Shown: in pieces, positions 26,176 to 32,497 of the stretch
Numbering within the stretch: position 1 is the stretch's first letter
How the letters are laid out: each line of letters starts with the position of its first letter
IMG/VR virus record: IMGVR_UViG_3300028886_000034
Location: 182,081-246,080 of that record
Source of the DNA: a virus
Taxonomy: Duplodnaviria > Heunggongvirae > Uroviricota > Caudoviricetes
DNA length: 64,000 bases
Direction: 5' to 3' (one strand)
Notes under the pieces: generated by a model
Databases searched by the model: none
Told to the model about the DNA's origin: nothing
Seen by the model: only the letters and a program-made list of their open reading frames with translations
Position numbers and translations under genes: made by a program

Positions 26176-29090
26176 TTAAGCTAAAGGATCAATCCCCATT
26201 GCAGTACAAACTGCATTAAAATATTCTCCCGAACCAGATAACTCTACCTCTTCACTAATATCTGCAGCGCCATTTCTTATAATATCTGATAAAACTTGAT
26301 TTTTGATATTCTGGTTATCTGCTGATACCGCAAACATTTGTTTTAAAACTTCTTTTCCTTCGCTACCATAAGAGAGTAAAGACCAAGTGTCCATTTCGCC
26401 CATTTTCTGACCACCTTCTCTAGCTTTTCCTCTAGTAGGGTTCATAGTAGTTTTAATGTATCTTCCAATATTCCTGGCATGACTTTTTAAACCAGCAATC
26501 TGTTCAAGTCTCTGGAAATAAAGCATACCTATGGCTACAGGATATTTAGTCTTTACATTAGGCCCTAGTTCAGGTAAATATAATTGTTCTGCTAGGGGTA
26601 TTCCTAATTTCTTTGAAGTAGCTATTACTTGGTCTATAGTATCTCCTTGGAATGGTGCTACAATTAACTTAAATCTATTTTTTAATGTATCTTGAATGTA
26701 TTTTTCAAACTCCTGATTATCCATAGATTTAAGATTCCTTGCAATTCCAGTAGAATAAACTTTATTATCAGTATTATCTAATCCACTGTATAAGTCTATT
26801 ATAAACTTTTCAATTTCATTTCTACTAGCACCATTATCAACTAATTTTTTAAGCATTCTGGTGGCATCATCCATTATCTTACCTGTGGCACATTCATGTA
26901 ATTGCCCAACATTCATTCTTCCAACTACGCAAAGACTATGATAAATAACGTCAATAACTCTTCCGTCCATAGTTCTCGGCATTTTATCATCTGGAAGAAT
27001 CTTAGTGATAACTCCTTTACCACCATGTCTGTTCGTAAGTTTATCTCCTAATCTAGCTGGCATATATGAGATTAAATCTACTAAAACTTTATTTCCTTTA
27101 AACACTTCATTGTGATCTGTAAATTTTCCCGCATTTTCTAATAAAAACTTTTTATTAAATAATCTTTTGCCACCAGCTTGAGATATAACTGAATCTGTTT
27201 TAGCATAATAGTTGTCTGTATAGTTTATTAAAGGCAATATTTGATTAATATTCCCGTTAGGGAAAAATTCTACATTAGTTACTTTACAATCATTAGGTGC
27301 TATTATTTCATAATCATCTGCTAATGCCATATCTCCTACTATAGATTTTCTTACTTTTAAAACTGTATCTCCAGTCTTAAACTCATCACCTATTTTAGGG
27401 AATACGTCAATTTGATCATTATCTAATAATGTAATTTCTATTTTATCGTGATGAATTGAAGTTACTCTATTTGCAAAACTTTCAGAGACTACAAAACCGT
27501 CTTCATAGTTATATCCCATATAGCTCATATATGCAACTAATGCATTGACACCTTGAGTTAAGGTAGGACTAATGTATTGATTTTTAGCTAAGATTTTAAA
27601 CTTATCAACTTTATCTCCAGGTTTAACAAGAGGAGTAAAAGTTAAAGCTGCATTTTTTCCAGAACCTGATATTAATCTACTTGGTCTAATATCTATAATT
27701 TGATTTTTTCCAGATTTACCTTGGACTATAATAACGTTATCATCAACATATTTAACTACGCCATCTTCATTAGCTTTTTTAGCAAAAGTTGAAGAACACA
27801 TTGCTGGAATAATTGTTTCAGCTCCAGTAGATATAATTGGGGATTCTGATTGAAGTACCGGCACAGTTTGACGAGCTTGGTTAGCTGCCATGATACCTCT
27901 AGCCTGGTCATCAGCATCTACATAAGGAGTTGCCGATAAAGCGGGGCCCATAATTTGAGTATTTTTAGGGTTAGCTTCCATCGGCATAAACCCATGTTGA
28001 GCTTGGTCATACATATGACCTAAAGATAAGAAAATTCTAGCTCCCGGATCACCTTCAGAAGTATCTGTAGGGTCTAAGTTTCCAAAGTGCGAATTTCTAA
28101 CTGCTCTATCTCTAGGCATTATAGCATCTGGATTAGGTAATCCTCCTGGGCCAGCAATTCTAACTGCAGCATAATTACTAACCTCTTCAATAGGATTTTG
28201 TTCCTGAAGTTGCTGTAAAGCACCCTTGTCTCTAAAAAACTTAGTTACAAATGACTGATCCACAGAAACTTCTTTATCTGGGTCATACAGATGCTTTCTT
28301 TTAAAATTAGAAACTCCCTGAGCAACTCCTCTTTCAACAGCATCTACTATAATATCTGTAGTTTTCAAATAAACATTCTCAATACTAAGTTTATCGGAAG
28401 TTCTTCCGGACATTGCTAATTCTGCACAATATGGAATAATGTCTTTTAAAGTAGTTGGTAAATTATTTGATTTAAGAACTGATTCAGTTTGAACATCAAT
28501 AATATATTTGATAACTTGAGCCAAAATATATTCAGATTTAGCTTGTCCTGTATAAGCTCTTAAAGCCATAAAAGCATCCTGTACTGAAGATATTGACTTA
28601 AATAAATACTTTTTACAAACTAATCTTAATCCAGTTAAAATAACTCTATGGTCTATTCTGTTTTTATCAAAACTTTCAATAACTAGCCATTTTTCTCCAT
28701 CTAATGGATAGCATAACTTTCCTCTTAATTTAGTCTCACTAATACTATAAGGTATTTCATAATGCCTCAAAACACCTTCAAGGCCTAATATTAAAGAATA
28801 TAACAGTATTAAAGGAAGTTTAAATCCTCCACAATAGCATCTAACATCTTCCTGTTTATTAAAGATACCATAGTTAAATGATATTGAAGAATAATTAGTT
28901 CTAATTTGACTTTGATTCTTTCTTACTATAAAAATAGGCAAAGTTGCCATTATTGTCGGGAAGAACCACTTCAATCCGCCGGAAACAACATATCTATCTT
29001 CTTTAATTTGTGGTACTCTAAATTTAAGAGTAACAGTTTTTCTAGTCGGAGTAATGCATTTAATATTAATAATATCAAAGTCAGAAGGAT
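26176..29090 (-). CDS. rpoB: phage RNA polymerase beta subunit, exon 2
   Basis: GPGG, HFGNLDPTDTSEG, DDQARGIMAANQARQ, GYNYEDG, GDKLTNRHGGKGV, RMNVGQ, GGQKMGEMD; frame open upstream of the track start to the splice site at 29090. Confidence 0.93.
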
Positions 29091-29212
29091 CTGGCGTGTA
29101 GGTTCATTTGGTTTCATTGCTGAAACTAACTTTACCCACAAGTCAACGCATTAATAGCGTTCCTGCGCATCTCGGCCAAAGACCTTGATACGTCTTACAT
29201 AGAACTCATGCG

Positions 29213-30472
29213 TTATTCGGATGGCTGCGCCCCAGCCAACATAGCTGCATTACACGTTGCATCTTTTTTCTTAGATGGCACATACTGCGCTATGCGTTTT
29301 GCAGCATTAATATCTCGATCTTCAATATGACCGCAAATCGGACATACAAACACTCGGTCTTTTAATGTAAGTTTTTGTTCCTTGGGTCTACGATACCCGC
29401 AGCTAGAACAAGTTTGCGTTGCGGCAAATGTTACTGGTACTGTAATGAAATTTGCGTAATGCATCTTGCATTTATTCGCAAGCATGATACGAATTATTCC
29501 CCAGCTTGCGCCATAAATAGCTTTCGCTAACTTACTGTTTTTAACCATATTCTTAGACTTAACGTTTTCCCAATAGACCCATTTGTACGTCTTTACGATT
29601 TGTGTTGTCATCTTATGAAGATTGTCTTTACGGATATCCTTAATCTTTAAACAAACGCGCTGATGCTTGGTTTTCGCTTTAGCGTAATGTTTGCTCGTTT
29701 TCCAATCCTTATTCTTGTTTCGTTTACGTCCCATTACTTTGTCATAATATCGTGCTCGCTTATCGAGTTTCGCTAATTTTTTCTTAGTTTTAATATCGAA
29801 ATTCATCACAGTTCCGTCTGAGAGTGTCATAAGGTTATGAACACCAGGATCAATACCGACTTTACCACTGCCCTCCGTTTCTTTCAACGGAGTACCGAGT
29901 TTAATATCAAACGAAGCCATATAAATTCCTGCTTCTTTAGAAATCGATACTTCCGAAAGAGTATCGCCGTCATCAGGATAATACTCGATATCTTCCATAA
30001 TTTTGATCCATTTTAAATCGTCATCGATTCCACTGTAACGACCAGTAGTGAATCGAAAATACTGATGTGTTCCTCTTTTTACGAAATAACCGAGTTTTTT
30101 ATCCCTGATACGCGAGTAATCCATAATAAACGAATCTTTCGTCTTTTTCTTAGTTTTAAAATTAGCTTTACCATGACGATAAATTGTTTCGGCTAAAGTC
30201 ATTTGCACTTCGCTCCAAATAAACGCTGGCATTTCCTTTTCCCAATCTGCTTGAAGTCCATCTTGACGAACTTTTTTCAAAAGCTCTTTATCGATTTTTA
30301 CTTTTGGATTCGTTTCCTTTTCTCGCAAATAACACGCTAACAATCTATTCCAACAACGCCGTCTATAGCCAAAACATTTATCCAGATATCGTTTCATGGT
30401 CCGATTTGGTTTTATCTTCGTTTTAGTAGCATGATATCCGTATTTAGCGCTATTTTTCGAATTTTGACTCAT
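29213..30472 (-). CDS. tnpB: TnpB RNA-guided endonuclease (IS200/IS605/IS607 OrfB family)
   Basis: FG..R..WN N-terminus, RuvC GIDPG / WEN / DRDINAA, Zn finger CSSC..CPIC; ATG 30472 after AAGGAGGTG (track GTG 30487 lies in the RBS). Confidence 0.92.
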   Translation of the reverse strand: MSQNSKNSAKYGYHATKTKIKPNRTMKRYLDKCFGYRRRCWNRLLACYLREKETNPKVKIDKELLKKVRQDGLQADWEKEMPAFIWSEVQMTLAETIYRHGKANFKTKKKTKDSFIMDYSRIRDKKLGYFVKRGTHQYFRFTTGRYSGIDDDLKWIKIMEDIEYYPDDGDTLSEVSISKEAGIYMASFDIKLGTPLKETEGSGKVGIDPGVHNLMTLSDGTVMNFDIKTKKKLAKLDKRARYYDKVMGRKRNKNKDWKTSKHYAKAKTKHQRVCLKIKDIRKDNLHKMTTQIVKTYKWVYWENVKSKNMVKNSKLAKAIYGASWGIIRIMLANKCKMHYANFITVPVTFAATQTCSSCGYRRPKEQKLTLKDRVFVCPICGHIEDRDINAAKRIAQYVPSKKKDATCNAAMLAGAQPSE

Positions 30473-30535
30473 TTTACGTGGGTACACCTCCTTTCTGAAA
30501 CAAATATTATCTTCGGTTCCTTCGTATTATATACA

Positions 30536-30564
30536 AGTTTACCATATATTTGTTCCAAAAGCAA
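30536..30564 (-). promoter_or_regulatory. putative sigma70-type promoter for tnpB inside the intron
   Basis: TTGCTT-17-TAAACT with TGn extension. Confidence 0.45.
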
Positions 30565-30882
30565 GTGCGTTTCTACCTCGAATTTTGCTTTCGCTATTCG
30601 TTAGTACGCCTAGACTATATCTTCCTCCGAAATTCCCTCACGCTGTTCGTGATTTTCGGAGTTTGTACATCAGACATTGACGCAATTAATCGTCTATCTT
30701 AAAGCGGTTGACACCGCAATAGTCGTTGAACCTTGCAGATTATTATCTACAACGGTTGCTGATTACCTAATCCGTAACGTTATTACCAAACGGTAGTTAC
30801 GGCTCTTATGTAGGCTTTCCAGCAATTCACAATCAAATTACGACACAGATTACTCTGTGAAGATGCAACTCACTAAAGAGTT

Positions 30883-32497
30883 ACATTTCTGTAGGAGCTG
30901 CTTTAGAATCAGAATAATATACTTTCGCAACTTTATATCCTATTTCAGATAATCTACTAGAAGCAGAAGAAGTAATATCATGGACAATTCTTTCTTTATA
31001 TCCATGTCTTCTAGCAATGGCCATACCAATATTATTATGTATTAATTGTCCAACTATTTCATGATTAGATACTGGGTCAAAGTCTTCTTCTTTATTATAT
31101 CCTAATTCTTGTGAAGTAGTTTCTTGTTCCATTAAATTAGGAGTAAGATCTGGTATTTCACCTGGCCTAAGTTCTTTAAGGACAGTTTTAAGTTCTTTTG
31201 AACCAACTAAAGCTTCTTGAGCTATTTTTAATTGTTCTTCTTTATCATCAGTTCTAACAGCATCTACAGCATCTACAGCTTTTGAAGGCTTAGCTCTAGT
31301 ATAAGCATCTAATCTATTTTCAATAGACGCTTGACTAATATTATAATTAGCTAAGAAGGACTTAGTATTTTTAGCAATTTCTTTAACCGCATCTTCAATA
31401 TCATCTTTACCAAGATCACTTAATTTAGTTTCATTTTCTTCAGATTTCTTAATAGGATCTCTTTTAGCTACAGGTATTCTGACTTTCTTAACTATTTCTT
31501 TTTCTTCAATATTATCTCCTCTATCTATAACTGCATTATCATAGATTCTAGGTTCTTGTGGATTAGAATCTGGTATAGGGGTCATTTGAATAGGAGGATT
31601 CTGAATGTTTTTAACTGTATTAGCTAAGTTAGCTAATTGATCTAAATTAGGCTTCTGAGGATTCGAAGGATCTTGAATAGGTTCTTCCGGTTGTTTATCT
31701 TTATTAAAAAAGCCTTTAATCTTGTCTAAAACAGTAGTATCTTTTTGAAGTTCTTTTGTATTAGGATTGGGTTGAAGATTAGCTCTGATATCTTTCATAT
31801 TTAATGCTCTTTTATTTCTAACTGACTGAGCTAGTTCTTCATCATCCATAATAATTTTATTATTTAAACTTTGCTTTAAAGTCATTAAAGCATTAGTATA
31901 AAGATTCTGTTCAGTATTAACACTATCTCTATCAAAGAATAAATGGAAAGAAGAAGTATCTTCATTATAAAGAATAACTTTATCAAAAGTAATCTTATTA
32001 AAGCTATTAGTTCTTAAATTTGATAATAAGTTAAATATAAGAAGATTTTTCATATTGATCTTACTTCTAACTAAAGAACTATCTAAAACATATAATAAAA
32101 CATTCATATAATGTAAATTAGTTTTAAGTTCTTTATTTATATTAAACTCGAAGTTATCAACTATATTAGCATATCTTAATGAAGAATACTTTTGTCTAAT
32201 GTAGCTAATATACATTGTAAGATCAAAAACAAAAGAATTTCCTTTAGCTAATATAGGATTAACTAAAACAGTTTTAATAGCATCTCCATATTTAGCTTTA
32301 ACTTCTTCTGGATTTAATGAAAGTACTTTATTTAAAACTCTCATAGCTTCAGGAGCATAAGCTAATATTGGAGGATTAGTTAAAGGTAATCTTTGGTAAT
32401 AAGTACAACCTAATTCAGCACCTTCGACTAATAGTTCTAAACAGATTCCTTTTTTAGCTATAGGTAAATTAGTTATAATATTATCCATTATTAACAT
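30883..32497 (-). CDS. rpoB: phage RNA polymerase beta subunit, exon 1 (long N-terminal extension)
   Basis: Track ORF ends ..APTEM then TAA at the intron boundary; splicing gives APTEM-YPSDFDIINIK..TLKFRVPQIKEDRYVVSGG. Confidence 0.8.

Follow-up and report, generated by a model that had tools for sequence, protein, structure and literature searches.

The window, i.e., the whole 64-kb stretch of DNA that was analysed, belongs to a complete phage record of 284 kb (genome G000) and carries a phage RNA polymerase beta-like gene that is split by a group I intron with tnpB inside it; all features of the element and its host gene described below lie on the minus strand. The whole element (29091..30882, 1,792 nt), which also contains a predicted omegaRNA, is a transposase-less IStron in a giant phage of the cattle gut. 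Its ends are given by empty alleles, in which the intron site is unoccupied, in two related phages (L006 and L097), and by RNA contigs that skip 1,792 nt. Exon 1 (30883..32497), placed by the restored joint frame, ends in ...GAAATGT, which forms the 5' strand of P1 and the predicted TAM; exon 2 (26176..29090) matches Pfam RNA_pol_Rpb2_6 (E 8e-40) and the RNA polymerase beta subunit of PHROGs. With the intron removed in silico, the two exons join into a single frame of 1,509 aa, which aligns at 61% (residues 10-1506) with the uninterrupted ORF of L006. The first-pass annotation had placed the feature at 29091..30610; the end at 29091 stands, but this range covers only the insert in P9, past P9.0, and the intron starts at 30882.

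The ribozyme begins with a P1 helix (30862..30886) that has a U.G pair at the 5' splice site and in which the internal guide sequence GCAT pairs with ATGT of the exon; all nine pairs are formed in each of the five elements compared (see below), and the helix is present in the MFE fold. The core from P2 to P9 (30576..30860) is defined by covariation over the five elements and includes the R motif (30731-30720), the S motif (30623-30613) and the 5' strand of P9.0 (30610-30606), which pairs with the intron 3' end at five of five positions in every element. Across twelve helices 94% of the cells are paired in the five elements and 19 pairs have changed on both sides, a result equalled by none of 500 shuffles (the helices of this test were named from the studied sequence, and the low score of P1 in it is due to an aligner shift of one column). 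The fold of the 5' core is much more stable than shuffled sequences (z -4.7), while the 3' region alone shows no unusual stability (z -1.3). A search of the intron against Rfam gave no group I match at the gathering score or at E values up to 10. Extra helices between P7 and P3, a class IA trait, are present and bear on an assignment to subclass IA2.

Regarding expression, four RNA runs (X3-X6, out of 24 runs listed; two bovine gut samples from two studies) were compared at contig level, and each yielded a contig from which precisely the 1,792 nt between the element ends are missing. In X3 and X4 the exon contigs are identical to the window; in X3 the joined exons have a depth of 17.6 and a separate intron contig has a depth of 20.4. 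Among the pieces listed, none crosses the 5' splice site. The contigs of X3 and X4 fit efficient splicing; the joined form could instead be an empty DNA allele, as the contigs come from RNA libraries, which can hold DNA. The joined exons of X5 and X6 show 41 differences from the window over 1,561 bases (a strain 2.6% different), and intron contigs identical to the window occur beside these divergent joined exons (window 28348-31700); either the intron has recently passed into another allele, or two strains are present in one sample. A check for co-conversion of the exons in these two runs found five differences within 200 nt of the site, as against about ten expected, in a stretch that is also conserved in L097.

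The only gene wholly within the intron is tnpB, as had been proposed from the sequence: no other ORF of at least 60 aa is present, and neither tnpA nor an HNH, GIY-YIG or LAGLIDADG ORF was found there. The frame extends from 29213 to 30487, with an upstream candidate start GTG at 30487; because this codon overlaps the ribosome-binding site (AGGAGG, 30492-30487), the ATG at 30472 is the likely start, giving a protein of 419 aa (29213..30472). The protein matches OrfB_IS605 and Cas12f1-like_TNB of Pfam, both above the cut-off, as well as guided_TnpB of NCBIfam (178 bits, cut-off 100), and scores 161 bits against IS200_TnpB (cut-off 425). Alignment bore out the intact RuvC acidic residues (D/E/D) and zinc finger claimed for it: D213, E307 and all four cysteines of the zinc finger do not vary among the 18 aligned proteins, and D392 is kept in at least 90%.

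In a quick tree, in which the end-motif labels are too crude for a call between IS605 and IS607, this TnpB belongs to a separate clade (22 of 61 rows, support 100) whose roughly 12 clusters at 50% identity stand clear of the remaining TnpBs; the clade members score higher with the IS200/IS605 model than with the IS607 model, both scores being under the cut-off. The DNA context is visible for five elements, the other members, including the closest proteins (P0002-P0005), being protein sequences alone; wherever it is visible, the clade is apparently restricted to phages. The P0002 cluster, which lies on the branch of the studied TnpB, comprises nine members, all of 423-424 aa. Among named phage records the best TnpB is 31% identical, and the only intron match was a chance one of 49 nt. 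Pattern scans, in which an absence weighs little, gave 40 matches in GTDB genomes with no TnpB relative among them, 19 intron matches in GTDB genomes that all lacked the other core motifs and tnpB, and no close relative of the studied TnpB in IMG/VR; the intron pattern matched six times in IMG/VR, i.e., three known sister elements and three chance hits. L010, L011 and L098 were dropped as relatives, their matches being chance motif matches.

The stretch between P9 and tnpB contains no tnpA remnant and consists of the ribosome-binding site and a promoter-like site, both conserved across the family. The predicted promoter (TTGCTT-17-TG-TAAACT, 30564-30536, within a feature at 30485..30564) is of the sigma-A type and aligns with TTGACG-17-TACTAT in the sister L003; a consensus promoter scan of the window did not call it. 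Given this evidence from the sister elements, guide and nuclease could come from a second transcript, and splicing and guide production need not share one RNA. The earlier expectation that the two compete for a single RNA thus holds in part: such a conflict is published for IStrons, whereas the promoter-like site would allow the second transcript.

Past the tnpB stop, which lies 122 nt from the terminal G at 29091, is the hairpin-rich stretch of about 120 nt that had been noted, including the GTTTCA-GCAA-TGAAAC hairpin. The predicted omegaRNA scaffold occupies 29091..29240. In its first hairpin (29237-29223) the loop is GGGCG, whose GGCG forms pairs with CGCC (29096-29093), which precedes the terminal G by two bases; the four sisters have GGCA in the loop and TGTC at the 3' end, so that both partners have changed together. 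The same terminal bases also pair with the strand of P9.0, and the two strands of P9.0 co-vary between the element and its sisters. The scaffold pairing is present in five of five elements, but as a 4-bp pseudoknot of two sequence types it is not above chance (109 of 500 shuffles were as good), and three other tetramers downstream could also pair with the loop. A subterminal hairpin lies at 29145-29092; its apical part has three forms among the five elements. Since the loop pairs with the last bases of the intron, and since the internal TCAA is unconserved, a scaffold that ends at the splice site is favoured. On balance the scaffold most likely ends where the intron does, and the guide would be taken from the beginning of exon 2 (12-20 nt; 29071..29090), in analogy to published IStrons. 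The proposed guide has thus gained from the loop pairing and from the empty allele of L097, which retains the GAAATGT flank and matches the guide at 19 of 20 positions; the more distant relative L006 has the same flank and six mismatches in the 20-nt guide. The alternative of an IS end at the internal TCAA (29188-29185) was rejected, the motif being absent from all four sisters.

Weak hints of RNA ends come from the same runs. RNA pieces from X4, X5 and X6 have an end at 29210-29230, i.e., at the first predicted omegaRNA hairpin; two pieces reach just 7 (X3) and 11 (X4) aligned bases into exon 2, the one of X4 being a 154-nt contig over 29227-29080. Coverage of the omegaRNA region is nil in X5 and almost nil in X6 and carries no evidential weight.

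Four sister elements occupy four unrelated sites; with the studied one, a single phage lineage thus holds five elements, each at a site of its own. L001 (G000:C1 about 156037-157675; 1,639 nt, TnpB 41% identical) is in G000 as well, within a tail-fibre-like gene, L003/L004/L096 (one site) in a gene for a 342-aa protein on related phage contigs, and L005 in the terminase large subunit gene of a related phage contig. L097 carries its element in the same polymerase gene at another site (minus strand, window-equivalent position 31522/31523), the studied site being empty. Identity is 81-94% among the sisters and 59% between them and the studied element; the latter is itself known at one site, and the spread over unrelated sites is that of the sisters. 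Every sister site has an empty counterpart in G000 or G001. All five insertions are in the sense strand of genes and begin and end exactly with the intron. The 5' tetramer of the target matches the internal guide sequence in five of five elements (TGAT/GTCA twice, TGGT/GCCA twice and ATGT/GCAT once), and the 3' end is TCAG in the four sisters and CCAG in the studied element. Purifying selection acts on the tnpB genes of the sisters (dN/dS 0.09-0.12 in six of six pairs, a value for the sister branch only). The sisters at unrelated sites show that the element family moves to new sites; to our knowledge, classical homing introns as a rule do not. The idea of an intron fixed at its homing site thus had to be given up in view of four closely similar copies at four sites. 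The first-pass annotation had taken many copies at unrelated sites together with tnpA as the mark of an ordinary IStron: sister copies at unrelated sites do exist, but tnpA is absent. By the form of their apical 3' hairpin G000 goes with L097 and L003 with L005, whereas the TnpB tree places L003 with L097, a discord that may reflect recombination between elements.

Searches of the complete genome G000 found neither a Y1 transposase nor a resolvase, an IS607 transposase or a reverse transcriptase, in agreement with the proposed absence of a transposase, and G001 was likewise without a Y1 transposase, an IS607 transposase or a reverse transcriptase. There is no constant target duplication, the repeats at the five junctions measuring 1, 3, 2, 0 and 1 nt. 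An IS607-type core dinucleotide was rejected on these repeats, and the ends are unfit for a serine recombinase. The fit to IS605 is partial: the lack of duplication, TTGAT and TCAG at the ends of L097 and the subterminal hairpin agree with it, but the top of the hairpin varies. The left and right ends of the elements are not alike (p 0.27-0.70).

As in IStrons generally, the splice sites are the element ends, tnpB is present and copies of the family occur at unrelated sites without target duplication; the tnpA gene or fragment that is usual, although not required, is lacking, as is the HNH, GIY-YIG or LAGLIDADG ORF of a classical homing intron. Two groups, A and B, are defined in PMC4227781, which also describes members with ORF B only and members on C. 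botulinum phages and argues for spread without ORF A. With the group A IStrons (CdISt1/CdiIStron of Clostridioides difficile; PMC4227781 and 10.1101/2023.11.20.567912) the element shares its construction as one group I intron with tnpB and, by prediction, an omegaRNA at the 3' end, the U-ending 5' exon, the U.G pair flanked by base pairs within a continuous P1 and the lack of target duplication. Group A also has copies in unrelated genes and members that contain ORF B alone, and L097 has the TTGAT/TCAG ends. It differs from them in its AATGT/CCAG ends, as against a 5' flank of TTGAT, ATTAT or TTTAT (found in one of four sisters) and a 3' end of TCAG (found in all four), in having no tnpA fragment, in its phage instead of chromosomal setting, in the IS200_TnpB score of its protein and in a 5' tetramer that varies within the clade. 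Group A has conserved subterminal palindromes for TnpA; in a comparison among the five elements a subterminal hairpin is present but variable among the sisters, and the two ends are not alike. The group B IStrons (CboIStron, BcISt1, CbISt3 and CbISt4 on phages c-st and D-1873, and CsISt1) are similar in a pseudoknot partner that overlaps the 3' splice region, in their occurrence on phages and, for CsISt1, in an ORF B only make-up and a CAG end. Unlike them, the element has an exon 1 that ends in T and not in G, and it lacks a CGG end, a shared core dinucleotide, a serine recombinase and, among the longest 25 of 45 inverted pairs, a long AU-rich inverted repeat around the ORF. It is an IStron by the general definition but has the end sequences of neither group, and it is therefore filed as an IStron variant outside both.

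We consider it fairly probable that this transposase-less IStron, absent from the joined polymerase sequence of the RNA contigs, spreads among related phages by RNA-guided homing. The ribozyme would splice itself out of the polymerase mRNA, while a second transcript from the internal promoter would supply TnpB together with an omegaRNA; the scaffold of the latter would end at the terminal G, and its guide would come from the first bases of exon 2. During co-infection TnpB would cut the empty allele, the end of exon 1 acting as TAM, and recombination would copy the element in; the carrier would be spared, as its TAM and target lie apart, on either side of the intron. The final intron bases may pair either in P9.0, for splicing, or with the omegaRNA loop, for guide formation, as in CboIStron. 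New sites would be reached rarely, the new exon 2 then supplying a new guide; this is the least certain step. For it we rank first, at about an even chance, a host IS200/IS605 transposase acting in trans, against which stand the unlike ends, the variable apical 3' hairpin and the lack of a relative in the pattern scans of GTDB genomes. Reverse splicing comes second, as possible but clearly less likely, and repair of off-target TnpB breaks appears improbable.

The homing logic is plausible and is the published behaviour of the class. For CboIStron 10.1101/2023.11.20.567912 reports a TAM, an exon-derived guide, cutting of the empty joint, retention and a conflict with splicing, also with a construct without tnpA, and a pseudoknot that overlaps the 3' splice region; PMC13565253 reviews IStron behaviour as a form of homing, for which co-infecting phages are possible targets. 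Against the homing account stand the empty alleles at sister sites (G000 103242, 168583 and 213602; L106 in G001), none of which has the TGRT that precedes the sister elements. Their flanks are AGAT (twice), TGGC and one diverged sequence, and two of them match the guide at 18-19 of 20 positions; the lack of TGRT is either an escape from cutting or drift. The AATGT flank of the studied site fits neither TGRT nor the group A pentamers, so that the studied TnpB would need a changed TAM.

A self-retargeting homing intron that needs no transposase, the internal guide sequence choosing sites by reverse splicing into phage mRNA, recombination fixing the insertion and TnpB then homing, is the strongest rival, although we think it unlikely. 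It would explain why the 5' tetramer tracks the internal guide sequence in five of five elements with three variants and why all insertions are sense-strand, within genes and exact; it also agrees with the lack of a Y1 transposase, resolvase or IS607 transposase in G000 and of a tnpA remnant, with pattern scans that found no bacterial copy, and with the argument for ORF A-free spread in PMC4227781. However, selection for splicing after insertion by any route would give the same pattern, a reverse transcriptase is encoded in neither of the two phage genomes, the TTGAT/TCAG ends of L097 are an IS605 signature and the sites number only five. Its most general form, in which group I introns confined to phages have replaced both homing endonuclease and transposase and each exon 2 reprograms TnpB, so as to make a universal self-retargeting homing intron, is in our opinion equally doubtful.

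The departure of the studied flank from the consensus of the sisters may also mean that an old IStron is stranded here, still splicing with a TnpB that no longer cuts the site because its TAM is TGRT-like and not ATGT. Two relatives keep the empty site with ATGT unchanged, as such a passenger would allow, and purifying selection was measured on the sister branch only; but the catalytic residues are intact, the branch has many full-length relatives (the P0002 cluster) and the scaffold pairings are kept with compensatory changes; we regard this reading as quite improbable. Less probable still is a nuclease kept mainly as a weapon that destroys the essential polymerase gene of co-infecting competitors, like the PhiPA3 intron nuclease: the essential target, a near-perfect target in a relative with an 84%-identical exon 2 region and the precedent in PMC11620839 speak for it, but the sisters occupy any gene that offers the tetramer, as fits selfish spread, the reach is narrow (6 of 20 mismatches in L006) and killing would be a by-product of the homing cut.

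That precedent is an HNH nuclease encoded in an intron of a jumbo-phage polymerase beta gene (gp210 of PhiPA3), which harms a competitor. It resembles the studied element as a nuclease-bearing group I intron in the same kind of gene, aimed (by prediction in the studied element) at the intron-less allele; it differs in being a protein-guided nicking enzyme at one site, whereas the nuclease studied here is predicted to be RNA-guided and belongs to a family at unrelated sites.

The surmise that the locus represents a new kind of system was not borne out: tnpB-only IStrons, phage IStrons, homing driven by TnpB, exon-derived guides and the conflict between splicing and guide production are all in print. 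New are the TnpB clade, its apparent confinement to phages, the 5' target that tracks the ribozyme guide sequence and the natural set of filled and empty sites. No phage TnpB intron is described in the passages covered of 10.64898/2026.03.11.711047 and PMC12880540, and no account of TnpB-only introns in lytic jumbo phages was found in the mostly open-access literature covered. PMC4227781 left open how transposase-less IStrons spread, and CdiIStrons are called non-autonomous or immobile in 10.1101/2023.11.20.567912. The clade offers a small natural test set for this question: five elements, each at its own site and with a matching empty allele, three combinations of target and guide sequence, and RNA contigs at the junction. 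If homing is true, IStrons would be linked to classical phage intron homing and to interference between phages, and the TnpBs of the clade may bring new TAMs (predicted TGRT and ATGT).

Other elements were found in the same phages. At G000:C1 about 75990-78300 (L105) a 496-aa TnpB/Cas12f-like ORF has RuvC motifs, and behind it lies a CRISPR-like array with a 35-nt repeat, 31-nt spacers and at least eight repeats, a candidate compact type V system on a phage; the spacers matched none of the phage loci compared beyond the array itself. G000 has a third TnpB-bearing intron at G000:C1:141496-143361 (L102, L151), whose TnpB is unrelated and whose ends are those of a textbook group A element (TTTAT/TCAG); its removal restores the frame of the host gene, which resembles a major capsid gene and holds two more intron cores. 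Further downstream in the polymerase gene of L097 lies a group I intron that has no ORF and ends in ATTAT and TCAG. Another ORF-less group I intron (L002, G000:C1 about 31600-31960), in what is presumably an anaerobic ribonucleotide reductase gene, matches the studied element at 83% over 48 nt of P2-P4, a likeness that suggests that the ribozyme may derive from the phage's own intron pool.
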